Assembly: GCA_020850615.1 (NCBI GenBank) | Contig: JADZEI010000066.1 | Location: 1,943 to 65,942 of the forward strand | Direction: 5' to 3' | DNA length: 64,000 nucleotides | Origin: Dehalococcoidia bacterium | Lineage (GTDB): Bacteria > Chloroflexota > Dehalococcoidia > Tepidiformales > Tepidiformaceae | Shown here: positions 1 to 63,925 of the stretch, piece by piece | Position numbering within the stretch: the first letter of the stretch is position 1 | Layout of the letters: every line of letters begins with the position of its first letter | Notes under the pieces: model-generated | Database searches by the model: none | The model's input: only the letters and a program-made list of their open reading frames with translations | What the model was told of the DNA's origin: nothing | Program-made: the position numbers and the translations under genes

Positions 1-720
1 GCTGGCCGGCCGCGCCCGCATCCCCGCGACACGCCCCGCCATCCCGGGCGAAGGCGTCCCCGCGGCCGAGCAGCGCGTCCAGCTATAGGGCGATCGGAGC
101 CGCGACCGTACGGAAGCGGAGGGCCGCACCCCGGTCCCACCGCCCCGCGCCAGCCCGCACGCCCGCCAAACCAGGTGTAGCCGGCGCCCCTTGTGGGCGC
201 GAGCGTCTAAGCCCAACGGCTGCCCCACCGCCAGGCACTGCCCCACCCCGGCACCTCCGCCACCGCGCCAGCGCGCGACACCGCCCGCCCCGGGACGCGC
301 GGCCCCACACGCACGCGGCCGGCCGGTCGCGGAGCTCCCGCCCTCGGTCGAGGCTGCCGCGGGGCATGATCCCTGGGGCCGCAGAGCCGATGCTCTGCGG
401 CTACGCCTGCGGCGCCACAGCCGGTCGCCCGCCGCGCGAGACGCCCGCCGCGCGATCAGTAGCGCGCGCGTGAGCAAGCGCTCGGTCGCACCCCGGCACC
501 TCCGCCTCGCGACCGCCCGCGACCGCCCGACCGTCCGCCCGGCGGCGCGACCGCCCACCCGGGGGCGCGGCCCCACACGCACGCGGCCGGCCGGTCGCGG
601 AGCTCCCGCCCTCGGTCACGGGCTGCCGCGGGGCATGCGTTGGGCTGGCGCCAGCGCCCACGAGGGGCGCGGCTACGCCTGCGGCGCCGTCCCACCCCCG
701 ACCGCCGTCAGGGAACTCCC
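1..720. repeat. intergenic REP cluster
   Basis: A2 REP forward 177-223. B REP reverse 364-416 (stem variant CCGCAGAGC/GCTCTGCGG). A1 REP reverse 633-676. Two copies of the A1 3' extension (…GGCCGGTCGCGGAGCTCCCGCCCTCGGTC…CTGCCGCGGGGCAT) at ~300-363 and ~575-632. Confidence 0.85.
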
Positions 721-879
721 TATGCCAATTTCGTCACAAAGGATACGGGTAAAGAAAGACCGGCCCGATTTACACTCCAGTTACGGTCCTGTAATCCAGT
801 TCTGCTTTTGGGACACGAAACCGCCATCAACCTGATACGTGCGCACAACGCGCGCCGGGGTGTATCAGTGGTGTTTGCA

Positions 880-1785
880 ATGTCCCGCAGGGTTGCGGGA
901 GGGGCGGCGCTTGCCGTCGTGATCATGAGCGCGCTCCTGGCCGGGTGGTCCCAGGCCAGGGCGGATGAGGAAGCCAGCGTCGAAGTCGAAACCGCCAGCA
1001 CGGCAGGCCTGCCGGGCTTCGACATCAGCTGGCCGCAGTGTGGCGGCTACTACCCGGAGGCCCCTGTCCCCTTCGGCATCATCGGGCTCAATGGCGGCCG
1101 CCCGTTCACGGCCAACCCGTGCTTCGTCGAGCAGTACCAGTGGGCCGGGCAGTTCGAAACCAACCCTGCCATCTACATCAACGTGGCCTATCCGCGGCTT
1201 TCGCAGACCGAGGGCGCGACCGGCCCCTACGGCACCTGCGTCGAAGGCGACGAGTGGTGCCGCGCCTACAACTTCGGCTACGCCATCGGCCGCGACACCA
1301 TGGAACGGGTCGCCGCGCTCGGCATCCGGCCGTCGCGCTACTGGCTCGATGTCGAGACCGAGAACTACTGGCTCGATTCGGACCACGCCCACTACAACGC
1401 GCAGGTGATCCGCGGGACGGTCGAGTACTTCCGCGAGCGGGCCATCCCGATCGGCATCTACAGCACGCCCTACCAGTGGGGTGTGATCGCGGGCAACGCC
1501 GCCCACGGCGTCCCGGTCTGGACGGCCGGCGCCGACGACCTGGAGGACGCGAAGACGCGCTGCGGCAACCCGCGCTACGCCTTCGCCGGCGGCCAGGTGG
1601 TCCTCGTGCAGTACATCGCCAACAACTTCGACAACAACTGGGTCTGCACGGCCGGGCACGAAGTGCCGGAGCCGGTGAAGCCCGCGTCGCCGTCGGTCCG
1701 CGAGGACCTCGCCGGCCGGGCGCTGGCCGCCTCCGCCGGGCGCCTCGGGCTCTGGCAGGTGTTCCCGATCATCGCCGGCAGGTAG
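880..1785 (+). CDS. secreted glycoside-hydrolase-like protein (DUF1906 / lysozyme-type TIM-barrel fold, tentative)
   Basis: In-frame ATG at 880 inside ORF 640..1785. Hydrophobic signal AALAVVIMSALLAGWSQARA, then GFDISWPQC, YWLDVE and IYSTPYQWG segments reminiscent of DUF1906/GH25-like hydrolases. ORF part 640-879 is repeat/leader derived. Confidence 0.6.
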   Translation: MSRRVAGGAALAVVIMSALLAGWSQARADEEASVEVETASTAGLPGFDISWPQCGGYYPEAPVPFGIIGLNGGRPFTANPCFVEQYQWAGQFETNPAIYINVAYPRLSQTEGATGPYGTCVEGDEWCRAYNFGYAIGRDTMERVAALGIRPSRYWLDVETENYWLDSDHAHYNAQVIRGTVEYFRERAIPIGIYSTPYQWGVIAGNAAHGVPVWTAGADDLEDAKTRCGNPRYAFAGGQVVLVQYIANNFDNNWVCTAGHEVPEPVKPASPSVREDLAGRALAASAGRLGLWQVFPIIAGR

Positions 1786-1795
1786 GCCGGCCGGG

Positions 1796-2608: not shown

Positions 2609-2616
2609 GCAGCCTC

Positions 2617-3435: not shown

Positions 3436-3835
3436 CCGCCGAGCATACGCCGCGCCCCCGGTTCATCCCATGACCGGTGTCACCTGCGTGTGGGGCGGGC
3501 TGCCCGGGCCCCTGCGCGGCGCAGCCGGTGTAGCCGGCGCCCCTTGTGGGCGCGAGCGTCTAAGCCCAACGCATGCCACACCACCAGGCCCCTCCCCCAG
3601 CCCGGCGACACGGCGGCCGCGCCAGCGCGAGCATCAGTGGCGCGACCGGCCGAGGGAGCGCTCGCCGCACCCCGGCACTACCGCCCCGCGCCAGCGCGCG
3701 AGACCCTCGCCCACGCGTCCGGCCGGTCGCTGCGCTCCCGCCCTCGGTCGAGGGCTGCCGCGGTGCATCCGTTGGGCTAACGCCAGCGCCCACGAGGGGC
3801 GCGGCTACGCCTCTACGCCTCACTCCACCCGCGCG
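3436..3835. repeat. intergenic REP cluster
   Basis: A2 forward 3530-3576, whose long form runs to ~3700 and includes CATCAGTGGCGCGACCGGCCGAGGGAGCGCTC. A1 reverse 3767-3810 with extension. Octamer module 3807-3835 abuts the Sua5 stop. Confidence 0.85.
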
Positions 3836-4920
3836 GCCGCACGCCGGAGCCGGTCGTCGATGGCGCGGGCGTAGCCGGTCATCGTCTCCGGGGCGATGGC
3901 GAAGACCGACTCGGCGCCGCGCTGGTCCAGCTCCCGGAGGGCCGCGAAGAGCCGGCGCGCCGCCGTCGTGTGGTCCCCGCGCGGCCCGAGCGACGCGGTG
4001 AGCGCGGGTGCGAGGTCCGCGAGCGCCTCCAGGTCCTCGTCGCTCAGCAGCAGCGCCGCGCGGCGGCCGGCCGCCAACTCCTCCGCGACCAGCGCCCGCA
4101 CCCGCGCGAGCGCAGCCTCCCGGGGGCCCGTCACGTAGGTCAGCCGCGCGCGCGGGGCGTAGTGCTTCGCCATCATCCCCGGCGAGACCTTCTCCCGCGC
4201 GCCGGTGCGGATCGTGGCCGCCGGGTCCGCGCGTTGTACCACCTCCGCGATGGCCTCGGTGGGGACCGCGCCCGGCCGCAACACAGAGACGCCGTCGGCG
4301 TAGACCGCCACCACAGTCGACTCGATCCCCGCCTCGGCCGGGCCACCGTCCAGGACCATGTCGATCCGCCCGCCGAGGTCTTCGAGCACGTGCGCCGCCG
4401 TGGTCGCGCTGGTGCGGGTGAACCGGTTCGCGCTGGGCGCCGCCACCGGCACGCCCGCCGTCGCGATGAGCGCGTGCGCCACCGGGTGCCGCGGCACGCG
4501 CACCGCGACCGAATCGAGCCCCGCCGTGACCGCGGCCGGCACCTCCGCCCGCTTCGGCAGCACGAGCGTGAGCGGCCCCGGCCAGAACGCCGCGGCCAGG
4601 GCCACGGCCAGCGGCGGCACCTCCCGCGCGACCGTGGCGAGCTGCCCGGCGTCGGCGAGGTGGACGATCAGCGGGTCGTCGGCCGCGCGCTCCTTCGCGG
4701 CGAAGATGCGCCCGACCGCGTCCGCATCGAGCGCGTTCGCCCCCAGGCCATAGACCGTCTCCGTCGGGAACGCGACGAGCCCGCCGCGGCGGACGACGGC
4801 CGCCGCGCGCGCGATGACCCCCGGGTCGGGCGCCGCGCTATCGATGGCAAGGACTTCCGTTTCGATGGTGTGATTAAGGCGTAAAGGCGTGGAGGCGTAA
4901 AGGCGTGGAGTGGCGTCCAC
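3820..4920 (-). CDS. tsaC: L-threonylcarbamoyladenylate synthase (Sua5/YwlC long form: YrdC + Sua5 domains)
   Basis: 366-aa ORF with VVRRGGLVAFPTETVYGLGANA…DPLIVH (YrdC signature) and a C-terminal Sua5 domain. The first ~15 codons (MDATPRLYASTPLRL) are encoded by an octamer repeat array, and no alternative in-frame start was seen. Confidence 0.85.
   Translation of the reverse strand: MDATPRLYASTPLRLNHTIETEVLAIDSAAPDPGVIARAAAVVRRGGLVAFPTETVYGLGANALDADAVGRIFAAKERAADDPLIVHLADAGQLATVAREVPPLAVALAAAFWPGPLTLVLPKRAEVPAAVTAGLDSVAVRVPRHPVAHALIATAGVPVAAPSANRFTRTSATTAAHVLEDLGGRIDMVLDGGPAEAGIESTVVAVYADGVSVLRPGAVPTEAIAEVVQRADPAATIRTGAREKVSPGMMAKHYAPRARLTYVTGPREAALARVRALVAEELAAGRRAALLLSDEDLEALADLAPALTASLGPRGDHTTAARRLFAALRELDQRGAESVFAIAPETMTGYARAIDDRLRRAAARVE
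4876..4920. repeat. GCGTRRAG octamer array
   Basis: AAGGCGTAAAGGCGTGGAGGCGTAAAGGCGTGGAGTGGCGTCC. Encodes the first codons of the Sua5 ORF on the minus strand. Confidence 0.85.
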
Positions 4921-5068
4921 CGCGAGCTTCGGCGCTCGTTACCAATGTGCGAGCCGGGCGCGCAGGGTGCTTCGGCGTCCGCAATCGCGCATCGGTGATC
5001 ATGGAATGGACGTGCGATATCCGCCCCGGCGGAACGGGGCGAGAACCGTACCGTCGAGGAGGAACGCG

Positions 5069-5374
5069 ATGCCCCGGGACCCCGGTTCCACCTACGAAAC
5101 CAGCGCAAGCACCGGCGACCTGCACGGTGCCATTGGCGTGCCCATCTACACCGCCGACGGCCGGTTCCTCGGCACGATCAAGGAGGTCCGGGACGCGTAC
5201 TTCAAGGTCGATGTCGCGTATGCCCCGGACTATTGGCTCAGCCAGGACGAGGTCGCGCTCCATGCGGGTAGCCAGGTCGTCCTGTACTCCAACCACGATG
5301 ACATCGACGCGCGAAAGCACGACGAGCCCGGTCCCGGGACCACCGGCGACGACTCCCCCGCGCACCAGGCGTAG
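5069..5374 (+). CDS. DUF2171/PRC-barrel-like small protein
   Basis: ATG 5069 preceded by GAGGAGG (5056-5062). Core IYTADGRFLGTIKEVRDAYFKVDVAYAPDYWLSQDEV. Paralog of CDS 42073..42444. Confidence 0.65.
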   Translation: MPRDPGSTYETSASTGDLHGAIGVPIYTADGRFLGTIKEVRDAYFKVDVAYAPDYWLSQDEVALHAGSQVVLYSNHDDIDARKHDEPGPGTTGDDSPAHQA

Positions 5375-5477
5375 CGGCCGGTTCACGCCACCCCACGCCT
5401 CTGCGCCTGTGAGACGAGCGTCATATAGCGATGGGGCGCCGCCGCCTACACTCACGCCCTCCCCCGCTGGAGGCGCA

Positions 5478-6410
5478 ATGGCGATCCTGCTCGTAGACGA
5501 GCTCACCAAGCGATACCGCAACGGCACCCTCGCGAACGACAACCTCTCCCTCGCGGTCGAACCGGGGGAGGTCTATGCCCTGCTCGGCCCGAACGGCGCC
5601 GGCAAGACCACGCTCGTCCGCCAGGTCCTCGGGCTGCTCAAGCCCACGAGCGGCCGCATCCACGTCGACGGCGTCGATGTCGTGGCCGACCCGAAGTACG
5701 CGCGGCGGGCGATCGGCTTCCTCCCCCAGGCACAGTTCGCGATGGAAGCGATCCAGGTCGGCGAGCTGGTCTACGGCATCGCCCGGCTGCGCGGGCTCGA
5801 TGCCGGCGAGGCCCGCCGCCGCACCGACGAGCTCCTCGACGAGCTCGACCTCGGGCCGTTCCGCGGCACGCAGCTCCGCTCCGCCTCCGGCGGCATCCGG
5901 CGGCTCGCGGCCTTCGCTACCGCCGTCGTGGGCCACGCCCGCTTCCTTGTGCTCGACGAGCCGACGAACGACGTCGACCCCGTGCGGCGGCAGCTGCTCT
6001 GGAGCCGGCTCGCCGCCTTTCGCCGCGAAGGCACCACCGTCCTCCTCGTGACCCACAACCTCGCCGAGGCCGAGCGCGTGATCGACCGGTTCGCCATCAT
6101 CGACCATGGCCGCATCCTCCGCGAAGGTACTCCCGCGGCCCTCCGCTCGCTCGTGACGGACCGGCTCCGGCTCGAAGTCACGACCACGGAGGCGTTCGGC
6201 GGCGCCCACCCCGCGCTCCAGCCCGACCCCGCGACGCCCGGCGCCTACCTGTTCGACCACAGCGACCTTGCGGCGGTGAGCGCCTGGGTGCAGGCCGCCC
6301 ACGAATCCGGCGAGCTGGTCGACTTCCGCATCGGCCCGCCGACGCTCGACGACATCTACACGGTGACGGTGGGGGACCCGCGCCGGGAAGCGGTGGGGGC
6401 CGCGAAATGA
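5478..6410 (+). CDS. ABC transporter ATP-binding protein (ABC-2/DrrA-like exporter)
   Basis: In-frame ATG 5478 within ORF 4905..6410. Walker A GPNGAGKTT, signature SASGGIRR, Walker B FLVLDEPT. Stop overlaps the permease start (ATGA). Confidence 0.9.
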   Translation: MAILLVDELTKRYRNGTLANDNLSLAVEPGEVYALLGPNGAGKTTLVRQVLGLLKPTSGRIHVDGVDVVADPKYARRAIGFLPQAQFAMEAIQVGELVYGIARLRGLDAGEARRRTDELLDELDLGPFRGTQLRSASGGIRRLAAFATAVVGHARFLVLDEPTNDVDPVRRQLLWSRLAAFRREGTTVLLVTHNLAEAERVIDRFAIIDHGRILREGTPAALRSLVTDRLRLEVTTTEAFGGAHPALQPDPATPGAYLFDHSDLAAVSAWVQAAHESGELVDFRIGPPTLDDIYTVTVGDPRREAVGAAK

Positions 6411-7144: not shown

Positions 7145-8357
7145 GGGCGTAGAGGCGTGAAGGAGGGGCGTAAAGGCGTAAAGGCGTAGAGTGGGCGTCC
7201 GCCGCGAATCCGAGCCGCGCGCGTGAGCGAGCGGAGGCGGACCCCCAGCACCGGCGCCCCGCGGTAGCCCGCGACCCCTTCTCCCCGCGGCCCGTACACC
7301 CAACGCGACGCGCCCACCGCGGAGCGCGCGACACGGCACCGACCGGGTGTAGCCGGCGCCCCTTGTGGGCGCGAGCGTCTAAGCCAACCGATGTGGCATC
7401 GGAGGCCGCCCCGCCCCGGCGACCCTGTCCCGGTATCGCCACGCCACCCCTCCGCGGCCGGGCTGTCGCTACGCTCCCGCCCTCGCTCTGGGCTACCGCG
7501 GTGTATCCGTTGGGCTGACGCCAGCGCCCACGAGGGGCGCGGCTACGGCTTCGCCCCGCGGCGCCGCCGGGGCCGAGGAATCGTCGCCAGGCTTCATCGA
7601 TCCACGCATCGCGGGTAGCTGCGAGATCCTGTACGGCTCGCGATACCGCGGGTCATCCTCGGGAAGCGGGCCCCTGTTGATAACGCGACCCATCGTCTGC
7701 CTCGTTCCAGTCTTCGAGCCGAAGGTCTGCGTCGGCCCGGATACTGTCCACTATATCGTCCCCGGTAACGCCCTCGGACGCCGTTCAACCACCGCTGCAA
7801 GTTCGCCCTCACGCCCGTCCCTCCGTCGCCCGGGGTAGGGGCGAATCCGAGCCGCGTGCGTGAGCGAGCGGAGGCGCACCCCCCAGCACCGGCGCCCCGC
7901 GGTAGCCCGCGACCCCTTCTCCCCCCGGCCCGTACACCCCCGCGACGCGCCCACCGCGGAGCGCGCGACACGGCACCGACCGGGTATAGCCCGCGACCCC
8001 TTCTCCCCCCGGCCCGTACACCCCCGCGACGCGCCCACCGCGGAGCGCGCGACACGGCACCGACCGGGTGTAGCCGGCGCCCCTTGTGGGCGCGAGCGTC
8101 TAAGCCAACGGATGTGGCATCGAAGATCGCCCCACCCCGGCGACCCTGCACCGCGAAAGCGCCCGGGGGCCACACCCAGCCATGCGGCCGGCCCGTCGCT
8201 ACGCTCCCGCCCTCGCGTTGGGCTACCGCTGTGCATGACACGGACAATCCCGCGGAGCAATGCTCCGCGGCTACGCCTGCGGCGCCGCGACGCCCGCCCC
8301 TTCGCGCCTTTACTTTGGAGTAGGGTGCTTCGCCCGGCCGCGCGCTACATTCGGCCT
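7144..8357. repeat. 1.2-kb non-coding repeat mosaic
   Basis: Octamer array 7144-7200. Composite unit 7205-7393 repeated at 7843-8114. A2 forward 7349-7393 and 8070-8114. A1 reverse 7503-7546. 84-bp tandem units 7903-7986 / 7987-8070. B reverse 8233-8286. A less GC-rich unique segment lies at 7560-7800. Confidence 0.85.
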
Positions 8358-12249: not shown

Positions 12250-12534
12250 TGCCCCGCGATAGCCCGCGAGCACTCGCCCAGGGGACGCGGACCACACCTG
12301 CCCTGCCGGCCGGTCGCTGCGCTTCCGCCCTCGGGCTGCGGGCTGCCGCGAGCATCCGTTTGGCGGCGCCAGCGCCCACGAGGGGCGCGGCTACGGCTCC
12401 GCCACTCGCTGCCGCGCGGCATGGCACGGACAATCCCGCGGAGCCGGTGCTCCGCGACTACGTCTGCGGCGCTTCGGCGGACGCCCCACCCCACGCCTTT
12501 ACGCCTTTCCCCCTCCCCTGTAGCGTCCCCCGCG
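12250..12534. repeat. intergenic REP cluster
   Basis: A1 reverse 12352-12394 with extension 12300-12351. B reverse 12419-12472. Degenerate octamer module 12481-12510. Confidence 0.8.
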
Positions 12535-14893: not shown

Positions 14894-16318
14894 TCAGGCG
14901 GCCTTGCGCTGGCTGTCCGGGGTGGCCGGGCGGACGTTCTGGTTGAACCGGAAGACGTTGTCCGGGTCGTACTTCGCCTTCACCTGGGCGAGCCGCTCGT
15001 AGGCGCCCTTCGCGTAGGCTTCGCGCACACGGCCTTCGCCTTCGTCGCCGATGAAGTTGACGTAGACGCCCTCGCTCAGGTGCTTCATCCGCTCCCACGT
15101 CTCGTCCGCCCAGGCGACGTGCGGGGCTTCGTCCGTCACCGTCTCGTCCCAGAGGCCGAGCACCGAGACGAAGTACTTCTTGTCGCGGTGGACGAACGCG
15201 TTCGAATCCGCCGGGATGCGGGCGAGCTGCCCGCCGAGGCCGCGCAGGTGGATGCCGGCCATCGGCGACGGCGCGTTGTCCACCGCCGCGATCCAGCCGT
15301 CGATCGTCTCGTCCGGCACCTCGTTCGTGAACATCATCTTCACGCGCCCGCCGTGCGGGGCTTCGGCGAACTGCATGTACTGGAACATCACCGGGTAGGG
15401 GACCGTCTCGACCGTGTCGGCGATCGGCTCGGCCAGGGCGCGCAGCGGGGCCATCGCCTGCGGCCCGTCCGCGGCATCGCCAATCCAGGCGGCGAGGAGG
15501 ATGAGCACGCGCTCGCCCAGGCGCTCTTCGGGGATGAACGGCGCCGGCGGGGCGTGGGTGATCGTCGCCATCGTGGTGAGCTCGTCCGGCGCCGTCGCGC
15601 TGTATTCGAGGTAGCCGCGGACCACGTCGCGCGTCGCCGGGAGGATGATCGCGCCGCCGTAGACGTGCTTCACGGGCACGAGCTTGAATTCGAACTCGAC
15701 GATGACGCCGAAGTTGCCGCCGCCGCCGCGGATGGCCCAGAACAGGTCGCTGTTCTGGAGGGCGCTGGCCGTGACGACGCTGCCATCGGCGAGGACGAGC
15801 TTCGCGGAGAGCAGGCGGTCGGCGGCGATGCCGTACTTGCGCACGAACCAGCCGACGCCGCCGCCGGTCACCAGCCCGCCGAGCCCGACGGTGCCGGTGT
15901 CGCCGGTCGAAAGCGCGAGGCCGTGTTCGTGCGCCGGGATGGCGAGGTCGTAGCTGCGGGCGCCGCCCTGGACCTTCGCGACCTGGCGGACCGGGTCGAT
16001 CTCGACGCCCGTCATGCCGGCGAGGTCGATGAGCACGGCGCCATCGACGACGCTGAAGCCGCCGACCGAGTGGCCGCCGCAGCGGACCGAGAAGGGGATG
16101 CCGTTGGCGCGGGCGAAGGTCACCGTTTCGGCGACATCTTCGCTGCGGCTGGCGCGGACGATGACGGAGGGGAAGCGGTTGTAGAGGAGGTTGGCGCCGT
16201 GGCGCGTGGTCTCGTAGGACTCGTCGCCGGGGAGGATGACCTCGCCCTGGACGCGGGTGCGGAGCTCGTCGATGGTGCGGGCGGCGTTGCGGATGGGGGT
16301 GGTGTTCTGGGTGTTCAT
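14894..16318 (-). CDS. FAD-linked oxidase (FAD_binding_4 + berberine-bridge/BBE C-terminal domain)
   Basis: ATG 16318 with AGGAGAGG upstream. RCGGHSVGGFS FAD-binding region and C-terminal YDPDNVFRFNQNVRP BBE signature. Confidence 0.85.
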   Translation of the reverse strand: MNTQNTTPIRNAARTIDELRTRVQGEVILPGDESYETTRHGANLLYNRFPSVIVRASRSEDVAETVTFARANGIPFSVRCGGHSVGGFSVVDGAVLIDLAGMTGVEIDPVRQVAKVQGGARSYDLAIPAHEHGLALSTGDTGTVGLGGLVTGGGVGWFVRKYGIAADRLLSAKLVLADGSVVTASALQNSDLFWAIRGGGGNFGVIVEFEFKLVPVKHVYGGAIILPATRDVVRGYLEYSATAPDELTTMATITHAPPAPFIPEERLGERVLILLAAWIGDAADGPQAMAPLRALAEPIADTVETVPYPVMFQYMQFAEAPHGGRVKMMFTNEVPDETIDGWIAAVDNAPSPMAGIHLRGLGGQLARIPADSNAFVHRDKKYFVSVLGLWDETVTDEAPHVAWADETWERMKHLSEGVYVNFIGDEGEGRVREAYAKGAYERLAQVKAKYDPDNVFRFNQNVRPATPDSQRKAA

Positions 16319-16486
16319 GGCTTGGGGGACCTCTCCTGTGGTGTCGAAAACGAGCATGGCGCTCGCGGAGAGGGCGGCTCTTGGGCCCAGTTCACATTCG
16401 TTCTTAAGGGATCGCTAACGGGTGACTAAGCGTTTCCTAAATGCCCAGATAGGCGGCGCAAATGGCGGCGGCGGGGCCTCCGGATA

Positions 16487-16506
16487 CCCAGTTCCCGGTT
16501 CCCAGA
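16487..16506. repeat. heptamer mini-array (GGGAACT type)
   Basis: ACCCAGTTCCCGGTTCCCAG. Confidence 0.5.
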
Positions 16507-16534
16507 GGCGTTCGCGGCGTGGTCGCTCGCGGGC

Positions 16535-16978
16535 TCAGTCCCCGGGTGTGCGCGCTCCCCGGGCGTGGGTGAGGTCCAGCTGGCAAAGCCGGCGTTCCAC
16601 CTCTGCCAGGGCATCGTTGCGGTCGAGCAGCGTCATCACATACTGGTTGAGACTGACGCCGTCTCTTCGCGCCGACGCGACCAGGCGGCGGTGAAGCGAC
16701 TTCGGAAGGCGCACGTTGAACCGGCCGCTGTAGGTTTCGGGTTGGGACGGCTCGGGGATCGAGGCGCCGCGCTCGTACTCCGTCTCGATCCAGAGCTGCC
16801 GGATCTCCGCGGCGGCCGTGCTGACCTCATCGAGCGCCTCGACCTGGGTCATGCAGCCCGGCAGATCCGGGAAGAGGATCACGTAGCCGCCTTCGGCATC
16901 GGCGATGACGTCGAACGAGTACTCCAGTCCGAGGTAGTGACCCAGGGGTCGCCGCATGAGGGCCGTTGCTTCACTCAT
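16535..16978 (-). CDS. hicB: HicB-family antitoxin (HicB fold + C-terminal ribbon-helix-helix)
   Basis: Start ATG 16978 overlaps the hicA stop (ATGAGTGA). YVILFPDLPGCMTQVEALDE (HicB N-domain) and SGRFNVRLPKSLHRRLVASARRDGVSLNQYV (RHH). Confidence 0.8.
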   Translation of the reverse strand: MSEATALMRRPLGHYLGLEYSFDVIADAEGGYVILFPDLPGCMTQVEALDEVSTAAAEIRQLWIETEYERGASIPEPSQPETYSGRFNVRLPKSLHRRLVASARRDGVSLNQYVMTLLDRNDALAEVERRLCQLDLTHARGARTPGD

Positions 16979-17246
16979 CTTCCGGATCCAATCCGAGCCG
17001 TTCGCACAGCTCATCGAGGTAGACACGCTTGACCTTGCTGCCGTCCTTCAACGGCATGACTATCGACCGCTCGCCGGCCTTGGTGAAGCTGATGTGGCTG
17101 CCCACCTGGCGGGCCTGGGCCCAGCCGAAGGCTTCCAGCACACGGCGAACGTCGCCGAAGTCGGCTTCCGAGGGCCGGGCAACGATGCGAGCGATGGACT
17201 TATCCAGCTTCGTCACCCGGCCACTCGGGATTTCAGTACCACACAC
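16971..17246 (-). CDS. hicA: HicA-family mRNA-interferase toxin
   Basis: GTG start at 17246, or alternatively GTG at 17216. FGDVRRVLEAFGWAQARQVGSHISFTK…KVKRVYLDELCERLGL matches the YcfA/HicA pattern including GSH. Confidence 0.75.
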   Translation of the reverse strand: MCGTEIPSGRVTKLDKSIARIVARPSEADFGDVRRVLEAFGWAQARQVGSHISFTKAGERSIVMPLKDGSKVKRVYLDELCERLGLDPEDE

Positions 17247-17267
17247 AGTACCACGTTGAGTCCCCTC

Positions 17268-19449: not shown

Positions 19450-19776
19450 GGGGCCGCCGGCAGCGCGAGGCGAAGCCGTAGCCGCGGAGCAATGCTCCGC
19501 GGGATTTCCGTGCCATGCCGCGCGGCAGCGTGCGAGGCACCCTCACCGCAACCCGGCGACCCGGCGGCTGCGTCAGCGCGCGACACCGCCCCACCGGGTG
19601 TAGCCGGCGCCCCTTGTGGGCGCGAGCGTCAGCCCAACGGATGCACCACCGCCAGGCACTGCCCGAACCCGGTGACACCGTCGCCACGCCAGCGGCAGGC
19701 GGAATGTCGCGAGCTGCCGCGCGGCCTGATCCTGGGGGTCGCGGAGCCAATGCTCCGCGACTACGCCTGCGGCGCC
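19450..19776. repeat. intergenic REP cluster
   Basis: B forward 19478-19529, A2 forward 19600-19644, B reverse 19713-19776. The last one overlaps the 3' end of Uma2 copy 1. Confidence 0.85.
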
Positions 19777-20384: not shown

Positions 20385-20405
20385 GCCCCCAGTGTACCGG
20401 ATGGC

Positions 20406-21032: not shown

Positions 21033-21039
21033 GTCCCCA

Positions 21040-35040: not shown

Positions 35041-35066
35041 TTGACTCGATCCGCGAGAATGGGGGC

Positions 35067-46980: not shown

Positions 46981-47828
46981 GTGTCCGTGGGGGTGGGTTG
47001 GTAGCGCGTGGGAACGGTGTTGTGTCTCGAATGGGAATGCGGATCCCGCGTGGGGAGCGGCGGGCGTCCCGGGCGGGAAGACGCGCGTGTCCCGGGTGGG
47101 AGTTTGTGTGGTGGCGCGCGGGCGTGGGGAGGTGGGGGCGAAAGCGTTCCGAGCGAGCCGGGCGGGCGCTCCGCTGCCGCCCTCGCAGCCCCCGACGCTG
47201 GTGGCCTATCGGTGTCGCATCCGTGGGCTTCCGCTCAGGGCCCACGAGGGGCCCGGGCTACGGCGCGGCGGCGCGCCGTTGGCGTGGGCGGGGCGGGAGT
47301 GGGGCAGCGGAAGCGAAAGGCGTTCCAGGCGAGCCGGGCGGGCGCTCCGCTGCCGCCCTCGCAGCCCCCGACGCTGGTGGCCTGTCGGTGTGGCATCCGT
47401 GGGCTTCCGCTCAGGGCCCACCAGGGGCCCGGGCTACGGCGCCGGGGCGCGCCGCCGGCGTGGGCGCGGCGGGAGTCGAGCGCGGCAAAGGGGCGGGCGG
47501 CGCCGTTCGGGTTTGAGGGTGGTGTCCCGGCCGGGAAGGGGTGTGCGTCCATGGTTGGGAGAGGTTCCCCTCTCCCTCTGGGAGAGGTTCCCCTCTCCCT
47601 CTGGGAGAGGGGTTAGGGGTGAGGGTGCGGTGCTCTGGGTGGCGTGTTGGCCCTCACCCCAGCCCTCTCCCAAAGAGAGAGGGAGCCCGGCCTCGTTGTT
47701 GCGGCGAACGGGCGTCCGGACCCCCATGTTGAGGGCAGTGTGAGCGGCGTTACGTCGACCGGGGCGCGAGGGGAACGGCACGGGGCCGGGTGACGTTGGA
47801 ACGGTGGAACCGTCCCCGGGAGGCTACT
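46981..47828. repeat. 0.85-kb non-coding repeat mosaic
   Basis: ~176-bp tandem (47141-47266 / 47316-47442), each unit carrying an A-type REP variant with a GGGCCC/GGGCCC stem (47217-47261, 47393-47437). 23-bp tandem hairpin GGGAGAGGTTCCCCTCTCCCTCT x2 at ~47566-47611. C hairpins up to ~47690. Confidence 0.8.
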
Positions 47829-48876: not shown

Positions 48877-49182
48877 ATGCGGCGGTATACGGTCATCCTT
48901 TCGCCGGACCCGGAGCGGGGCGGGTTCACCGTGAGCGTGCCGGCAATGCCCGGCGCGGTGAGCCAGGGCGACACGCGCGACGAAACGCTCGCGAACATCC
49001 GCGAGGCGATGGAGGGCTGGCTCGCGGTCGCGCGAGACCACGGGGAGGACGCGCTCCACGAGACGCCCCAGCTCGTCGCGAAAGAAATCGCGTGGGAGCT
49101 GGCGGCCCGGGCCGAAGAGGGCTGGGACCTCCTCGTGGAGACGGCGGTGGTCGAGCTGCAGGCCGCAGCGGCGGCGGCGTAG
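48877..49182 (+). CDS. hicB: HicB-like antitoxin (UPF0150 fold)
   Basis: YTVILSPDPERGGFTVSVPAMPGAVSQGDTRDETLANIREAMEGWL matches the HicB N-domain pattern. Followed 4 nt later by hicA. Confidence 0.75.
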   Translation: MRRYTVILSPDPERGGFTVSVPAMPGAVSQGDTRDETLANIREAMEGWLAVARDHGEDALHETPQLVAKEIAWELAARAEEGWDLLVETAVVELQAAAAAA

Positions 49183-49186
49183 GCGC

Positions 49187-49414
49187 GTGAGCCGGCTCGC
49201 GGGATTCTCGGGGCGGGAGGTCATGCGCGTCGCGGAACGCCTGGGATGGGTGCACGAACGGACCGCGGGCGACCATTGGGTGTTTCGCCTGGAAGGGAAC
49301 CCCGAGAACCTCGCGATCGCCGACCACCGGGAATTGAAGCCGGGAATGGTGCGGCGTCACATCCGGACCATGGGCATCACCGTCGACGAGTTCCTGCGGC
49401 GCGCCCGGAAATAG
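49187..49414 (+). CDS. hicA: HicA-family toxin
   Basis: GTG start. SGREVMRVAERLGWVHERTAGDHWVFR…ELKPGMVRRHIRTMGITVDEF matches the HicA/YcfA pattern. Confidence 0.75.
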   Translation: MSRLAGFSGREVMRVAERLGWVHERTAGDHWVFRLEGNPENLAIADHRELKPGMVRRHIRTMGITVDEFLRRARK

Positions 49415-52200: not shown

Positions 52201-52926
52201 CGCACGGGGGCGAGGCGAAGCCGTAGTCGCGGAGCATCGGCTCCGCGGGATTGTCCGTGCCATGCCCCGCGGTAGCCCGCGACACGCCGCCCGGGGGACG
52301 CGCGCACCCTCACCCCATCCCTCTCCCGCAGCGGCGGGAGAGGGAGCTGCGTCATAGCACCCACGTCACGCGTCAGCCTGCGGCGAAGCCGTAGTCGCGG
52401 AGCATCGGCTCCGCGGCCCCGAGTGCCCTGCCGCGCGGTAGCCCGCGACGATCGCCGCGCCGGGGCGCGTACCCCCACCCTCGGCCCTCTCCCGCTGCGG
52501 CGGGAGACGATGGCAAACGGCCAGGATGGCGGATGAAGATCCACGTTCGTCCGGGAGAGTCGGCGATTAGAGGGTGTGGGATATTCGGCACTGCGCGGCC
52601 ATTTTTCAGAGCAGAGGGAGCCAGCCCGCGCCATGAATCGGAGCCGCGCCGGTGAGGAAGCGGGCGACCGTGACCCGGTACTCCCGCCCCGCGGCAGCGC
52701 GAAGTCGCCCGCACTCGGTGCGCCCCGGGGCAAAGGTGTCGCGGGCTACCGCGTGGCATGATCCTCGGGGCCGCGGAGCCGATGCTCCGCGACTACGGGC
52801 TTCGCCCCCTGTCGGGCGGACTGATCCTGCGGGTTACGAAGGAGCTCGCGTTTGAACTCCTTCCACTCATCCCGCTCTTTCATTCGCGACCTCGTTCCTG
52901 CATGCCGGTTCAGGCGCGGCGTCGCC
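52201..52926. repeat. intergenic REP cluster with ~168-bp tandem
   Basis: B forward 52223-52282 plus C hairpin 52308-52346, repeated as B forward 52391-52449 plus degenerate C 52475-52507. B reverse 52738-52806. Confidence 0.85.
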
Positions 52927-53448: not shown

Positions 53449-53457
53449 GGGTGTATT

Positions 53458-53756
53458 AAGGCGTAAAGGGGTGGAGGCGTAAAGGCGCCCACCCCCCGCC
53501 GCCGTAGCCCCCGGATTTTCGATTTTCGATTTTCGATTTTCGCCAGCACGGACGGGGTCGGCTGCGATGGCGCCGGAGACGGACGCGCACGCCGTCGAGC
53601 ATGGAGACGAGCGGTGGTTCGCATCAGCTCCGGGGCAGGCGACCATGTCGCTCTCACCGGAAATCGAAAATCGCAAATCAGGAGGGGCGGGGCTCGGCGG
53701 GGAGGGGCCCCACTCTACGCCTCTACGCCTTTACGCCTCACGCCTTCCCCGACACC
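53458..53756. repeat. ~300-bp nested imperfect palindrome (octamer arms outside, heptamer arms inside)
   Basis: Octamers 53458-53487. Heptamers GATTTTC x4-5 at 53513-53543. ~115-nt core. Inverted heptamers GAAAATC type at 53659-53680. Inverted octamers 53710-53756. Confidence 0.8.
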
Positions 53757-55352: not shown

Positions 55353-55412
55353 GGGGCGACTGCGAGGCACGAGGCGAGCGGGCATCCGTCCCCTGCGCTC
55401 TATACTGGACGC

Positions 55413-55721
55413 ATGCGCCGGTACCAGTCGGTCCGCCGAATCGAAGCCGGGAGCGTCGCGCTCCCGGAGGAAGCTCTCGAAGCGCTCGGTGTTACCGACG
55501 GCGGCGAAGTGACGGTCGTCGTGGAAGACGGCGAGGTCCGCCTCTGCCACGCGTCGCCGGGCACCTACACCGACCCGGAAGACGGCTTCGTTTTCGGCCC
55601 CGGGCACGAGGAGCGGCTGCGCCAGGCCCTGGCCGACTACGAAAGCGGGCGGGTGGTCACGCTGACGAGCGACCGCCTGCGCCAGCTGCTCGGGGTAGCG
55701 GACGACAGCGAGGATGCCTGA
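55413..55721 (+). CDS. AbrB/SpoVT-fold antitoxin-like protein
   Basis: RRIEAGSVALPEEALEALGVTDGGEVTVVVEDGEVRL fits the swapped-hairpin AbrB pattern. Overlaps the downstream toxin gene by 8 nt. Confidence 0.65.
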   Translation: MRRYQSVRRIEAGSVALPEEALEALGVTDGGEVTVVVEDGEVRLCHASPGTYTDPEDGFVFGPGHEERLRQALADYESGRVVTLTSDRLRQLLGVADDSEDA

Positions 55722-56831: not shown

Positions 56832-57446
56832 TCAGGGCTTCCATGCGCTGACATCGATCTGCTCCTCCAGCGGGAGCGTAGCGGGACTTGTCTTCCAGAA
56901 ACGGTCGGCGGCTTCGAGCGCGGCATAGTACGGCTTTTTGTCCTGGGCGATGATCTCCGGGATGGCGCGCTCGCCGGGAAGCAGAAACCCGAGTTTGGCG
57001 CAGAACACGAGGTACGAGACCGCCCGCGATGTCCGGCCGTTGCCGTTCGCAAACGGGTGAATCCAGTTGAGCCGCCACATGACGTATGCCGACAGGTGCT
57101 CCGGCGTCGCCACACCCCAGCGGTCGTTGACGTAGTCGCACATCTGCTGGAGGTAGCGCTCCACATCAATCGACGCAGGCGGCACATGGCTGGACCCGCC
57201 GATTGAGACGGCCTCACGCCGTAACTGGCCCGCATCGGGCTCCAGGCCCTGCACGGCAAGGCGCTGCAGTTCGCAGACGATCGCGGGAGTGAGATTCAGC
57301 CGGCCCGCAGAAATGGCCTCCTCGATCAGCTCGACCAGGCGATCGAACTGGAGGAGGCCGTTGTCCGCTTCGAGCGCATCGATCTCCGCATCGGACAGGG
57401 CGGGCAAGCCCTCGGGGTCGCTGCCGGTTCTAGTGGGACGCGGCAT
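56832..57446 (-). CDS. Fic/DOC-family protein (Fido domain)
   Basis: Fic motif HPFANGNGRTSR (HxFx[D/E]GNGRxxR with N at the D/E position). Its start overlaps the upstream small gene by 17 nt. Confidence 0.85.
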   Translation of the reverse strand: MPRPTRTGSDPEGLPALSDAEIDALEADNGLLQFDRLVELIEEAISAGRLNLTPAIVCELQRLAVQGLEPDAGQLRREAVSIGGSSHVPPASIDVERYLQQMCDYVNDRWGVATPEHLSAYVMWRLNWIHPFANGNGRTSRAVSYLVFCAKLGFLLPGERAIPEIIAQDKKPYYAALEAADRFWKTSPATLPLEEQIDVSAWKP

Positions 57447-57624
57447 CCCTGGTGGCGTGCGAGCTCAGGCGTTCGGCGGCCTCATCGATCGTGGCCTTCG
57501 TGATGCGCTCGTTTTCGATGTGCGTGTTGCCGTAGGCGAAGCTTCTCCGCTGCCGTTCCTTCGCGTCCTGGCTCATGCGCACGTGCCGGGCGGCGTCTAT
57601 TCGCGCTTGCAAGTCTTGATCCAC
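57430..57624 (-). CDS. VbhA-like Fic inhibitor/antitoxin (variant inhibitory motif)
   Basis: GTG 57624, 8 nt after GAGGAGG (alternatives GTG 57660, ATG 57576). ERQRRSFAYGNTHIENERIT aligns with the VbhA RR…ASQRLEG region. The motif is N-x3-E-N rather than [S/T]-x3-E-[G/N]. Confidence 0.5.
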   Translation of the reverse strand: MDQDLQARIDAARHVRMSQDAKERQRRSFAYGNTHIENERITKATIDEAAERLSSHATRDAASH

Positions 57625-59150: not shown

Positions 59151-59885
59151 GTAGCCGCGCCCCTCGTGGGCGCTGGCGCCAGCCAAACGGATGCCGCCGC
59201 GTCAGCCAGCGCCGCCCCCACCGGCGTGTACACACGCGTCGCACAGACACGTACCATGCTCAACGTGCATTACCGGAGACCCATCCGGCTGCCCCCAGAG
59301 GTCTACGGCAACCCGGCGAACGTCTTTCACGTCGTCATCCGTGCGTTCCCCGGCCAATCGCCGTTCGAGCGGCCCGAGGTTGCTGGTGCCACCTGGGGAC
59401 TGCTGGACGAAGAGGCACGTCGCGATAGTGTGGTAATGGCGGCGGCGTGCCTGATGCCGGACCATCTGCACCTGCTGCTTCGTCCCAATCGAGGCAGCCT
59501 CGTCAGCTGGGTTGGCGCGTTCAAATCGGTTTCGACGCGCCGGGTATGGCAGACCGGCTATCGCGGCCGGCTCTGGCAACCCTCCTTCTGGGACCGTTGC
59601 CTCCGCGAGAACGAGTTCGACACGGCGAGGGCATACATCATCAACAACCCGGTTTCGGCGGGGCTGGTCGACGAGCCCGGTGACTGGCCCTGGACTGCGT
59701 GGTGGGATGACCCGGCGGATTGAGCGCGGCAGGCCCCGCCCGGGTGTGACCGTCACCGTGCCGTCCCGGGGGGTCACCGCCCTCGCTGAGCGAGCCGGGC
59801 GGTCGCGGAGCTCCCGGCCCTCGATCGAAGGCTGCCGCGGGGCATGGGTTGGGCTGACGCCAGCGCCCACGAGGGGCGCGGCTAC
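59151..59885 (+). mobile_element. REPtron: RAYT gene bracketed by inverted GTAG-hairpin REP copies
   Basis: REP class A1 forward at 59151-59194 (GTAGCCGCGCCCCTCGTGGGCGCTGGCGCCAGCCAAACGGATGC) and its reverse complement at 59842-59885, with GTAG/CTAC on the outside. Confidence 0.75.
59256..59723 (+). CDS. REP-associated tyrosine transposase (RAYT; IS200/IS605-like Y1 HUH enzyme)
   Basis: ATG 59256 in ORF 58965..59723. HUH motif in MPDHLHLLL. The catalytic-Tyr block ARAYIINNPVSAGLVDEPGDWPW matches the RAYT signature Y-x3-NPV-x-AGLV…WPW. The gene is flanked by inverted REP copies. Confidence 0.85.
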   Translation: MLNVHYRRPIRLPPEVYGNPANVFHVVIRAFPGQSPFERPEVAGATWGLLDEEARRDSVVMAAACLMPDHLHLLLRPNRGSLVSWVGAFKSVSTRRVWQTGYRGRLWQPSFWDRCLRENEFDTARAYIINNPVSAGLVDEPGDWPWTAWWDDPAD

Positions 59886-61896: not shown

Positions 61897-62031
61897 CAAA
61901 CTCGCACGCGAGCGTCCCGCCCGGGAAGTCGAGAGCCCGGCGGAACCAGGTGTTCGTGGTGCGTCCCGGCAGCGGCGCCCGGCGGGGTGCGCCCAACGGG
62001 TCCCTTATGGAGGGGCGTGTTGGCGGCACCT

Positions 62032-63702
62032 ATGGCGAATCTACCCTTCCGGCTCGCGCGTGGAGCCGGCATTTTGTTCCTTGCGGGCGCGTTGCTCGCC
62101 GGGGGCATCCCCCGGGCGGCATCCGTGCCGCGCGTCCAGGCAGCTGGTTGCCCCGTGGTCAGCGGCTTCGTCTACCACGACGTGAACAACAACGGCCTGC
62201 GCGATGAGGGCGAACCCCCGATCGCGGGCAGCTCGATCGAGCTCCGCACGCCCGCGGGCGCCGTGGTCGGCCGCGCGACGACGGACGCGAACGGCTACTA
62301 CCAGTTCCTCACGGACGAATCCGCGAACGCGCCGCTCCAGACGCAGACGCACTCCGTCACGTTCCCGACCGAGACGACGGACTGGACGGCGACGAAGGAG
62401 CTCCCGCAGTTCGACCCCGGCCTGGGCACGCTCAAGTCGCTCACGATCACGAACAGCGGCAGCATCACCAGCGCGATCAAGGCCGAAAGCCTCGACAGCG
62501 TCGCCTCCACCGTCTCCGCGACGGTGAGCGGCACGCTGACCGTGACCGCGCCCGGCGACCGCGACATCGCGACGGTCCCGACGGTGAACGCGGGTTCGTT
62601 CGAAGCCGCCGCCTACGACGGCGTGGCCGACTTCGAAGGCGACAGCGGGCACGACTTCGGCTCGCACACGGCCTCGGACTCGAACACCGTGACCCTGACG
62701 GACCCTGCCTCGCTCGCGCCCTACGTGGGCACCGGCGCGGCGACGTTCACGGCGAGCGTGATCGCGAGCTCTCGCACCAGCGGCAGCGGCAACGTGCTCA
62801 ACCAGATCAACACGACGGCGGGCGCCCAGCTCATGGTCGTCTACCAGTACCAGCCGCTCGTCTGCCTCACGCCCGGGCGCTACAACATCGTCCAGACGGT
62901 GCAGCCGCCGACCTACACCGACGGCCGCGAGACCGCGGGCAACGTCTCGCCGATCCCCGGCAGCGACCGCAGCGACACCATCCCGGTGGACCTTTCGACG
63001 GGCGACAAGCCGAACAACAACTTCGGCGAGCTGCGCGCCAGCCTCTCGGGCTACGTCTACGTCGACGATGACAACGACGGCAACCGCGACCAGGGCGAGG
63101 CGCCCATCCCGGGCGTTTCTATCCGCCTGACCGGCACGGATTCGAGCGGCGCCACGATCGACAAGACGGCGACGACGGACGGCAGCGGCTTCTACGCGTT
63201 CCGCAGCCTCCTCGCCGGCGACTACGTCATCGACGAGACGCAGCCGGCGGCCTACATCGACGGCAAGGACACGATCGGCTCGCAGGGCGGCAAGACGTCG
63301 AACGATCGGCACTACGACATCGACCTGCCCGCGGGCGTCGACGGCGTGAACAACAACTTCGGCGAGCGCTATGCCCCCACGCCGACGCCGACCGGCACCA
63401 GCACGCCCCCGAGCGGGACGCCGGGCACGGGCACGGCGACGGGAACGCCCCCGGGCGGCGGCACCGGCACCCCTCCGGGTGGCGGCACCGGCACCCCGGG
63501 CGGCACGACCAACCCGAACACGGGGGGCAACACACCCGGCGGCACGGTCGCCGGCGCGCGCACGCCGGGCGTGCCAGGCGCGGGTTCCGGCCTCTTCGAG
63601 ACGGCGAAGAGCCCGAGCGTGATCGTGGTCGGGCTCGTCATCTTCGCGGCATCCGGGTGGCTGGCGTTCCTGGCCCTGAACCGGAAGCGGCCTGAGGCGT
63701 AG
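62032..63702 (+). CDS. cell-surface protein with two SdrD B-like (Cna-B type) domains and C-terminal membrane anchor
   Basis: ATG 62032 in ORF 61837..63702. Signal peptide. SGFVYHDVNNNGLRDEGEPPIAGSSIEL…DANGYYQF and SGYVYVDDDNDGNRDQGEAPIPGVSIRL…DGSGFYAF (SdrD B-like). Pro/Gly/Thr linker and a TM + RKRPEA tail. Confidence 0.8.
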   Translation: MANLPFRLARGAGILFLAGALLAGGIPRAASVPRVQAAGCPVVSGFVYHDVNNNGLRDEGEPPIAGSSIELRTPAGAVVGRATTDANGYYQFLTDESANAPLQTQTHSVTFPTETTDWTATKELPQFDPGLGTLKSLTITNSGSITSAIKAESLDSVASTVSATVSGTLTVTAPGDRDIATVPTVNAGSFEAAAYDGVADFEGDSGHDFGSHTASDSNTVTLTDPASLAPYVGTGAATFTASVIASSRTSGSGNVLNQINTTAGAQLMVVYQYQPLVCLTPGRYNIVQTVQPPTYTDGRETAGNVSPIPGSDRSDTIPVDLSTGDKPNNNFGELRASLSGYVYVDDDNDGNRDQGEAPIPGVSIRLTGTDSSGATIDKTATTDGSGFYAFRSLLAGDYVIDETQPAAYIDGKDTIGSQGGKTSNDRHYDIDLPAGVDGVNNNFGERYAPTPTPTGTSTPPSGTPGTGTATGTPPGGGTGTPPGGGTGTPGGTTNPNTGGNTPGGTVAGARTPGVPGAGSGLFETAKSPSVIVVGLVIFAASGWLAFLALNRKRPEA

Positions 63703-63784
63703 GGCCGGGCAGCGGCGGGCGGGGTCAACCCCGTTGCAGCGGGCCCCCAGGTCACCCGGCCCGCCGCCCCGGCCCCACGGGACA

Positions 63785-63925
63785 ATTGCCGATTGTCGAT
63801 TGTCGATTGCCCCGGCCATCCAGGGGCGAAGCCGTAGCCGCGCCCCTCGTGGGCGCTCGCGCCAGCCCAACCCATGCCCCGCGGCAGCCATCGCCCGAGG
63901 GCAGGAGCGCAGCGACGGCCCGGCC
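63785..63925. repeat. heptamer array + A1 REP after the surface-protein gene
   Basis: GATTGTC-type heptamers 63785-63811. A1 forward 63834-63877 with the usual 3' extension to ~63925. Confidence 0.8.

Follow-up and report, generated by a model that had tools for sequence, protein, structure and literature searches.

A probable GTAG-type REP-RAYT system in an uncultured wastewater Chloroflexota lineage

Repeats and a transposase gene in the window

The stretch of DNA analyzed here (the window: 64,000 nucleotides, positions 1,943 to 65,942 of contig JADZEI010000066.1, from a Dehalococcoidia bacterium) carries many copies of short repeats that begin with GTAG and continue into a GC-rich hairpin, together with an apparently intact gene for a REP-associated tyrosine transposase (RAYT). 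It is likely that one type of these repeats, which we call A-type, consists of repetitive extragenic palindromes (REPs) that fall in the GTAG super-family and form part of a REP-RAYT system. The G+C content of the window is 69-73%, and its sequence is present in sequencing runs from wastewater and activated sludge. For its glycyl-tRNA synthetase (GlyRS), the closest named relatives, at 78-82% identity, are Dehalococcoidia metagenome-assembled genomes, Tepidiformaceae and Candidatus Amarobacter glycogenicus, all Chloroflexota and placed in class Tepidiformia in the NCBI taxonomy. These GlyRS homologues exclude a source in Xanthomonadaceae or other Proteobacteria, which the G+C content and the style of the REPs might have suggested. 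Unless another contig is named, counts of REPs given below refer to the window.

The RAYT gene, along with several others, was skipped by a gene caller based on GC3 (G+C at third codon positions), and was found only through tblastn with E. coli RayT (taken from NC_000913.3), which gave one match in the window, at 59436-59717 (E=1.8e-6). Its product scores 41.1 bits against the Pfam model PF01797 Y1_Tnp (cut-off 23) and 79.8 bits (E=1.7e-22) against the NCBIfam model NF047646 REP_Tyr_transpos; the IS200 model returns 25.7 bits, for a cut-off of 55. H70-L-H72 (the HUH motif), Y127, WQP and NP are invariant in an alignment of eight sequences that includes E. coli RayT. The best sequence match in the PDB is 4ER8, a structure of E. 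coli RAYT in complex with a REP hairpin, and the same entry heads the Foldseek matches of an AlphaFold2 model of the protein (pLDDT 94.1; 4er8_A, E=9.7e-9, TM 0.63, rmsd 3.2 over 136 columns), with IS200/IS605 transposases ranking next (E of at least 1.1e-6, rmsd 5.5-12). The predicted fold is closest to the structure of the E. coli RAYT-REP complex, and to judge from its sequence the reading frame apparently encodes an intact RAYT.

The gene has a G+C content of 65%, where the window has 69-73%, and its GC3 is 0.78. It is present once in the window, lies between a WYL/HTH regulator and pyruvate kinase, and has no tnpB beside it. Both REPs at its sides belong to the class that we call A1; they carry the flank GGCGGAGC, are inverted with respect to each other and point their GTAG outward. 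A RAYT gene between inverted REPs is the arrangement known as a REPtron:

59256-59723 (+), RAYT gene, 155 aa; HUH motif PDHLHLLL, catalytic tyrosine in ARAYIINNPV, WQPSFWDR motif
59151-59885, REPtron: A1 REP (+), 61 nt, RAYT gene, 118 nt, A1 REP (-), GTAG heads outward

The window contains 43 GTAG REPs, 25 of A-type (11 A1, 9 A2, 3 A3 and 2 A4) and 18 of a class B that is absent from the first-pass annotation. In A-type elements, GTAG is followed by a GC-rich hairpin without mismatches and then by the tail AGCCCAACGGATGC; all 25 were located by a search anchored on tail or flanks in which the stem sequence was unused, and their stems are perfectly paired in 25 of 25 cases. The tail has 20 matches with at most two mismatches, for 0.65 expected, a number reached in none of 100 shuffles. 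Class B reads GTAG[T/C]C-GCGGAGC-loop-GCTCCGC. Across both types the stems are 6-9 bp long, perfect, and begin 0-3 nt past GTAG, with no broken stem in 43 copies; the head is GTAG in 41 and GTAT in two (41115, 41686). When perfect hairpins of at least 6 bp starting within 6 nt were sought, they followed 46 of 379 GTAG sites, as compared with 1-15 such sites for each of ten control tetramers. The first-pass annotation had reported one GTAG head and one conserved tail enclosing different hairpins, and each copy that it cited was recovered with the stem it had named: GCGCCC/GGGCGC in A1 and A2 (29846-29889, 3530-3576), GTGCCC/GGGCAC (27903-27947), GGGCCC/GGGCCC in A4 (47217-47261, 47393-47437), and the 8-bp stem CCGCCGAG/CTCGGCGG of all three A3 copies. 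The REPs are as follows:

59151-59194 (+), A1 REP, left flank of RAYT gene
59842-59885 (-), A1 REP, right flank of RAYT gene
633-676 (-), A1 REP
3765-3808 (-), A1 REP
7503-7546 (-), A1 REP
12352-12394 (-), A1 REP, tail with 1-nt deletion
21231-21274 (-), A1 REP
29846-29889 (+), A1 REP
40610-40653 (+), A1 REP, loop CTTGT
41752-41795 (+), A1 REP
63834-63877 (+), A1 REP
177-223 (+), A2 REP
3530-3576 (+), A2 REP
7349-7394 (+), A2 REP, variant tail AGCCAACCGATGT
8070-8115 (+), A2 REP, variant tail
19600-19644 (+), A2 REP without TA
27903-27947 (+), A2 REP, compensated stem GTGCCC/GGGCAC
40882-40928 (-), A2 REP
41069-41115 (-), A2 REP, head GTAT
41930-41976 (-), A2 REP, loop CTTGC
24077-24125 (-), A3 REP, GTAGT-CCGCCGAG-N6-CTCGGCGG plus A2-like tail
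31552-31598 (+), A3 REP
35933-35981 (-), A3 REP
47217-47261 (-), A4 REP, stem GGGCCC/GGGCCC, unit of a 176-bp tandem duplication
47393-47437 (-), A4 REP, second unit of the tandem duplication
380-404 (-), B REP core, compensated stem CCGCAGAGC/GCTCTGCGG
8251-8274 (-), B REP core
12437-12461 (-), B REP core
19478-19501 (+), B REP core
19740-19764 (-), B REP core, its TAG being the stop codon of a Uma2 gene on the - strand (19761-19763)
21315-21339 (-), B REP core
23786-23809 (+), B REP core, 20 nt past the GlyRS stop codon
26411-26435 (+), B REP core, its TAG being the stop codon of a ROK gene on the + strand (26412-26414)
26617-26640 (-), B REP core
30126-30150 (-), B REP core
34695-34719 (+), B REP core
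34865-34889 (+), B REP core
35836-35860 (+), B REP core
40547-40570 (+), B REP core
41686-41709 (+), B REP core, head GTAT
52223-52247 (+), B REP core
52391-52415 (+), B REP core
52772-52796 (-), B REP core

All 43 are extragenic, lying between open reading frames supported by Pfam or GC3 or touching stop codons, at a density of about 0.7 per kb of window. In four metagenomes, words from the REP core reach depths of 42-237 where bin depths are mostly below 20 (first 20 kb of the window). A search of the whole window against Rfam gave no matches at gathering thresholds.

Conservation of the core and pairing of the arms

The different parts of these elements change at very different rates. In the core (GTAG, spacer, stem, loop, stem), 1 of 253 sites is changed among A1 copies and 4 of 216 among A2 copies, the latter including a paired change; the corresponding values are 10% and 1% in the linker, 6.5% and 4.8% in the 14-nt tail (16 of 277, or 5.8%, together), and 17-32% and 19-22% in the outer flanks. 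Were the stems to change at the rate of the tail, about 14 of 240 stem sites should differ; only two do, and these are complementary to each other, which argues that the hairpin is protected. The paired changes within the window are C:G to T:A in the copy at 27903, C:G to G:C in those at 47261 and 47437, and G:C to A:T in the B copy at 404. Among 14 distinct cores from the window and from L139, one of the metagenomic contigs introduced below, five of the six stem pairs are invariant and the second from the base is CG in seven, UA in five and GC in two, and never unpaired. The resulting covariation score, 0.185 as against 0.077 in shuffles, was reached by none of 500 shuffles. The proposal that the stems covary was thus borne out, on a narrow base of one pair.

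The first-pass annotation had gone further, arguing that the folded form is under selection and not merely the primary sequence. The paired changes and the lack of any broken stem among 43 copies agree with the first half of this statement. The second half is overstated: Hardly any change is seen in five of the pairs or in loop, spacer and GTAG, so that the primary sequence is conserved as much as the structure. The loop and the unpaired GTAG are protected as much as the hairpin, and the independent paired events are few.

Close relatives of the RAYT are few (38 matches, the best 48-54% identical, several of them named RayT by the Joint Genome Institute, JGI), and those on the metagenomic contigs L139, L141 and L143 are each flanked by GTAG REPs, in the same REPtron arrangement as in the window. 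L139 has ten copies within 20 kb; they form GTAG-outside heterodimers and read either GTAGCC-GCGCCC-CTYGT-GGGCGC or GTAG[C/T]C-GTGCCC-CTCGT-GGGCAC: Its core is the A-type core of the window, with the same C:G/T:A alternative as the copy at 27903. The two REPs flanking the gene on L143 have a GTAGTC head and differ by one compensated pair (GTGCCG/CGGCAC and GCGCCG/CGGCGC), and those on L141 read GTAGCC-GCGGCCC-ACCG-GGGCCGC. The same stem pair thus toggles in REPs beside homologous RAYTs on two other contigs. An uncompensated stem change occurs in none of the 43 window copies and in one of the 15 copies listed from L139, L141 and L143, a degenerate L139 copy at 7987. We also noted that the loop is reverse-complemented relative to the GTAG head in some REPs, as in the B copies at 8251-8274 and 19478-19501 (ATT and AAT), and that the L139 element at about 7964-7987 (-) has ACGA in place of CTCGT, as if the interior of the palindrome had been flipped.

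Tails differ from contig to contig; L139 has a possibly related GGATGGCAC motif. When the pattern CGTCN{0,2}AGCCCAACGGATGC was scanned against 185,579 species genomes and the JGI metagenome contigs, there was no true match to the exact tail; the 134 loci returned are all single chance matches in unrelated taxa, and head plus hairpin accompany the tail in none. The GlyRS loci of three relatives (L135-L137; 79-82% nucleotide identity in the gene) have no A or B elements, and by their gene lists the neighboring genes are not conserved. One of these relatives, L137, has at 16283-16738 (-) a 151-aa Y1_Tnp-like gene (HVHIV motif) that is flanked by inverted GTAAACCC(C)TCCCTCACGGTC and by no GTAG REPs, and that may be a relative of RAYTs flanked by terminal inverted repeats.

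The conserved unit extends beyond the core on both sides. It begins about 8-12 nt 5' of GTAG and comes to about 85-100 nt in total, in place of the 44-47 nt previously assigned to it; A1 continues as ...GGATGC-CCCGCGGCAGCC-N6-CGAGGGCGGGAGCGCAGCGACCGGCCGG and A2 as ...GGATGC-CCCACCGCCAGGCAC-N-GCCCCACCCCGG. Neighboring REPs form 13 convergent pairs with GTAG outside, nine tandem pairs and two distant divergent ones. Of the 41 REPs that do not flank the RAYT gene, most belong to inverted pairs with GTAG outside (A2 with A1, or with B or A3 as a partner) or to clusters of three. In the pairs of A2 and A1 (3530-3808, 7349-7546, 40610-40928 and 41752-41976), arms of about 85-100 nt are kept, whereas the centers vary and can hold other repeat modules. 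In folding calculations on single strands the A2 arm pairs with the A1 arm as one long hairpin, with z scores of -5.67 (3522-3816), -3.04 (7340-7556) and -3.20 (41744-41984). Because these arms are conserved and pair into a single hairpin, A1 and A2 can be seen as a composite whose two arms differ slightly, with the tail forming the inner portion of each arm. From their differing arm sequences, arm-to-arm pairing would not be expected in A2/B and A3/B pairs. Pairs and clusters include:

3530-3808, inverted pair A2-> <-A1, GTAG outside, one long hairpin, fold z -5.67
7349-7546, inverted pair A2-> <-A1, GTAG outside, fold z -3.04
40547-40928, cluster B-> A1-> ... <-A2, C-type hairpin in spacer
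41686-41976, cluster B-> A1-> ... <-A2, fold z -3.20
19478-19764, cluster B-> A2-> ... <-B, mixed classes
35836-35981, mixed pair B-> <-A3, GTAG outside

The relationships among classes point to an exchange of parts. The 5' flank, spacer, 8-bp stem and 6-nt loop of A3 are unrelated to those of A2, and at least 55 nt 3' of its hairpin look, when compared by eye, like a variant A2 arm. A3 would therefore not be the product of compensatory substitution, as had been supposed; its sequence suggests a chimera of another REP module and an A2-like 3' arm. In a similar manner, B and A1 have their 5' flanks and the distal ATGCCSCGCGGYAGCC in common and differ in hairpin and proximal tail. That one tail occurs under different hairpins (A3 and A2, B and A1) is most readily understood if the arms descend from a common ancestor and head-hairpin modules have been exchanged, and not through compensatory substitution step by step. 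It is conceivable, if quite improbable, that GCGTC(TA)AGCCC, immediately 3' of the hairpin, is the junction at which RAYT cleaves and transfers strands, so that rejoining there swaps head-hairpin modules between arms. If this were true, the REP classes of one genome (A2/A3, A1/B) would interconvert by recombination and would not be independent lineages each with its own RAYT, which would account both for one tail beneath several hairpins and for the TA indel at the junction.

Two further kinds of repeat occur in the window. One is an intergenic family of eight copies without GTAG, a hairpin of the form CCTCTCCCGC-N4-GCGGGAGAGG that usually stands beside GGGGTGAGGG/CCCTCACCCC and is often located within or next to REP composites. 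The other consists of tandem arrays of 3-5 units of the octamer GGCGTARA, several of which run into GTGG(G)CGTCCRCCGCGA; every unit has GTAG or GTAA, and none has a hairpin.

23984-24007, 27844-27867, 31655-31678, 34790-34813, 35761-35784, 40733-40756, 52320-52343, 52486-52509: third-family (non-GTAG) hairpins
4878-4925, 7150-7200, 12490-12520, 24175-24200, 31740-31790, 43457-43500, 53450-53487, 53709-53746: GGCGTARA arrays

In addition, a terminator-like element at 29773-29825, in which TTT and (GT)6 come after the GC-rich hairpin CGCCCGGGCC-GCAC-GGCCCGGGCG, separates the monooxygenase gene from the A1 REP at 29846. Uma2-family genes (PF05685, putative restriction endonuclease-like) are present three times (19761-20405, 20406-21194 and 34974-35675); two are adjacent paralogues, and REP clusters adjoin all three.

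What maintains the hairpins

Since the RAYT gene is flanked by two A1 copies, the simplest selective agent is a transposase that acts on single-stranded DNA. TnpA-REP proteins bind REPs as folded single strands, and work on the enzyme of Stenotrophomonas maltophilia, which acts on perfect palindromes, found that mutations in GTAG abolish cleavage, that one loop base is critical, and that a mismatch in the stem reduces or abolishes cleavage, while swaps of complementary blocks have mild effects (PMC8266576). By analogy with these E. coli and S. maltophilia enzymes, the RAYT of the window would bind a REP as a folded single strand exposed transiently in replication; for cleavage it would require that GTAG be unpaired, and it would also depend on an unbroken stem and on particular bases in the loop. 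It would then cleave and rejoin nearby, such that REPs are copied, excised or recombined, and copies that lose their pairing would cease to be substrates and decay; cleavage and recombination by RAYTs have been proposed as the source of dimers and arrays (PMC3733652). Such a process could account for the near-invariance of GTAG, spacer, stem and loop, for stem changes that are paired only, and for the drift of tail and outer flanks. Because the published biochemistry fits the conservation profile observed here, we infer that a RAYT acting on single-stranded DNA would be the agent that keeps GTAG, stem and loop intact.

Several observations weigh against assigning these elements to a REP-RAYT system under selection for folding. 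The NF047646 score of the RAYT falls 0.2 bits under the curated cut-off of 80, and among the REP classes only A1 flanks the gene; A2, A3, A4 and B do not. Hairpins are predicted for single REP units, but their z scores against shuffles range only from -2.0 to +0.25 in this DNA of 71% G+C. The covariation amounts to one base pair and few independent events, and the near-invariance of the core could result from recent amplification instead of purifying selection. The copies were counted in 64 kb of the genome. Finally, no empty site, excision product or strain polymorphism was recovered from four DNA runs (X1-X4), which yielded unitigs of 200-650 nt at about 3-5x depth plus spurious joints; contigs aligned with one REP showed multi-copy depth and gave no usable variant table.

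An alternative is that the hairpins are kept for a role in RNA, as co-transcribed stem-loops of 3' untranslated regions that make upstream mRNAs more stable, cause pausing or termination of transcription, or tune expression, the link to RAYT being historical. In 11 cases the REP nearest a gene end lies 0-32 nt past the stop codon, in two the TAG of GTAG is itself that codon, and spacers with REPs are mostly between co-directional or convergent genes, matching the published distribution (PMC3733652); moreover, the REP core of another locus was found on one metatranscriptome contig. Because so many REPs are situated within this short distance of stop codons, some are probably co-transcribed. Nevertheless, we consider this explanation unlikely: GTAG, spacer and loop are as invariant as the stem, which an RNA stability element does not need and RAYT substrates do (PMC8266576), and REPs are found in divergent spacers too (12352-12461, 27903). 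Past the monooxygenase gene a separate hairpin and then TTTGTGTG intervene between the stop codon and the REP at 29846, where a simple terminator scan made no call. The RNA data are sparse, unstranded and possibly contaminated with DNA; the metatranscriptomes (X7, X15, X20) provide few contigs, from a strain 95-99% identical. With RAYT as the agent, any effect on RNA would be a secondary consequence.

Paired changes in a stem might also arise without selection on single copies. Imperfect palindromes are well known to mutate by template switching, and one possible route is such templated mutation within quasi-palindromes, in which strand-switch repair or gene conversion copies one arm onto the other; alternatively, a few variant masters could have been amplified. 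The independent events are indeed few, the two A4 copies being one tandem duplication, and the copy at 27903 has the variant tail of a subgroup and may stand for a subfamily whose other members are elsewhere in the genome. On L139, C:G and T:A each mark a subfamily with a tail of its own, so that a single origin can be assigned to the difference. Yet three unrelated contigs show toggling of the same pair, and uncompensated intermediates are absent from the 43 window copies and from 14 of the 15 others. In vitro, a stem mismatch reduces or abolishes cleavage by TnpA-REP, giving a direct selective reason for paired change (PMC8266576). The spread of master copies, for its part, already amounts to selection, acting on the substrate of transposition, and so is no true alternative. 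On balance we hold an origin without selection to be improbable.

Still less probable, in our judgment, is that the tail GCGTC(TA)AGCCCAACGGATGC is conserved not by descent but as a separate functional site, either for a host protein (as IHF and gyrase bind E. coli BIMEs, or bacterial interspersed mosaic elements) or for cleavage and joining by RAYT. This would suit a tail common to four head-hairpin types and a TA indel located exactly after GCGTC; we also read a GGATG(G/C)CAC motif 3' of the hairpin in L139 REPs as related, with the same variable dinucleotide before ATG. Nonetheless, the tail accumulates changes at about ten times the rate of the core (5.8% vs. about 1%), is missing from class B as well as from L141 and L143 REPs, and in its exact form has only single chance matches among the other genomes and metagenome contigs scanned. 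Comparison by eye revealed no covariation between the tails of paired arms.

Toxin-antitoxin-like genes are present in the window at 16535-17267, 48962-49414, 55353-55721 and 56832-57464, comprising a HicB/HicA pair, a second HicA, a weak MazE-like match and a Fic/DOC-domain gene. At 5337-6003, over the motif region of an ABC-transporter ATPase, depth spikes to 450-690 in four wastewater metagenomes, most likely from cross-mapping of conserved Walker-motif sequence from many organisms.

Relation to known systems

Nearly every feature of these elements has a precedent. The GTAG super-family and its REPtrons (Nunvar 2010, PMC2817692; Di Nocera 2013, PMC3733652) have the same unpaired 5' GTAG, perfect GC-rich stems of 6-9 bp and loops of 3-6 nt; the same abundance of extragenic copies, with several classes per genome and complementary stem changes within families; and the same predominance of GTAG-outside dimers, with conserved spacers, heterodimers or hybrid dimers, clusters, and RAYT genes between inverted REPs. 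The present elements differ in their host, an uncultured wastewater Chloroflexota of Tepidiformia/Dehalococcoidia-like affinity as opposed to a proteobacterium, in their exact sequences, which are new, and in the length of their arms (85-100 nt). One case within Chloroflexi, GTAG-23 of Thermomicrobium roseum, is already among the families described (PMC3733652).

REPINs (Bertels and Rainey 2011, PMC3116915), in which compensatory changes are common, likewise consist of inverted REPs and a spacer that fold as one hairpin, as A2/A1 pairs do, with a single RAYT nearby. Here the spacers exceed those of REPINs in length and vary, with about 100-230 nt from core to core, and other repeat modules are often found in them. 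Many pairs combine different classes (A2/B, A3/B) and would not be expected to pair along their arms, and no excision intermediates were observed. The BIMEs of E. coli (Ton-Hoang 2012, PMC3333891), mosaics of Y and Z REPs with linker motifs, also combine two REP types that differ slightly in spacer, loop and linker and alternate in orientation, with conserved motifs outside the REPs and clusters of at least three REPs; the stems of the window are perfect, without the bulge of E. coli REPs. In the group-3 TnpA-REP system of S. maltophilia (Corneloup 2021, PMC8266576), GTAG again precedes a perfect palindrome, and the in vitro determinants of that system match the conserved loop and perfect stems found here, although a 6-bp stem with a 5-nt loop replaces one of 8 bp and 3 nt and the proteins are distant. 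IS200/IS605 elements and their hairpin-bearing miniature derivatives share the Y1 HUH fold and the recognition of hairpins as single-stranded DNA. We rejected an origin as such derivatives: There is no adjoining tnpB, the gene occurs once in the window, its flanking hairpins are mutually inverted and highly repeated elsewhere, and the closest structure is a RAYT.

The suggestion of the first-pass annotation that the modular design is more elaborate than that of classical REPs is therefore unsupported, since GTAG with a hairpin, heterodimers that have GTAG outside and conserved spacers, mosaic clusters and complementary changes in the stem had all been described in REP, BIME and REPIN families (PMC3733652, PMC3116915). 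Novelty lies in the host lineage and in the sequences themselves; the rest is known for REP-RAYT systems, and nothing in the finding overturns current understanding.

To our knowledge, REPs have been studied almost only in Proteobacteria, and the elements reported here extend REP-RAYT systems to an uncultured, Tepidiformia/Dehalococcoidia-like lineage of activated-sludge Chloroflexota. They also matter for annotation: Such repeats break short-read assemblies and create spurious open reading frames, and a RAYT gene with a G+C content as low as that of this one is easily missed. Finally, the retention of a REP core beside RAYTs that are only 54% identical, along with the toggling of the same pair across contigs, offers a compact data set on which positions of a REP are read as structure and which as sequence.

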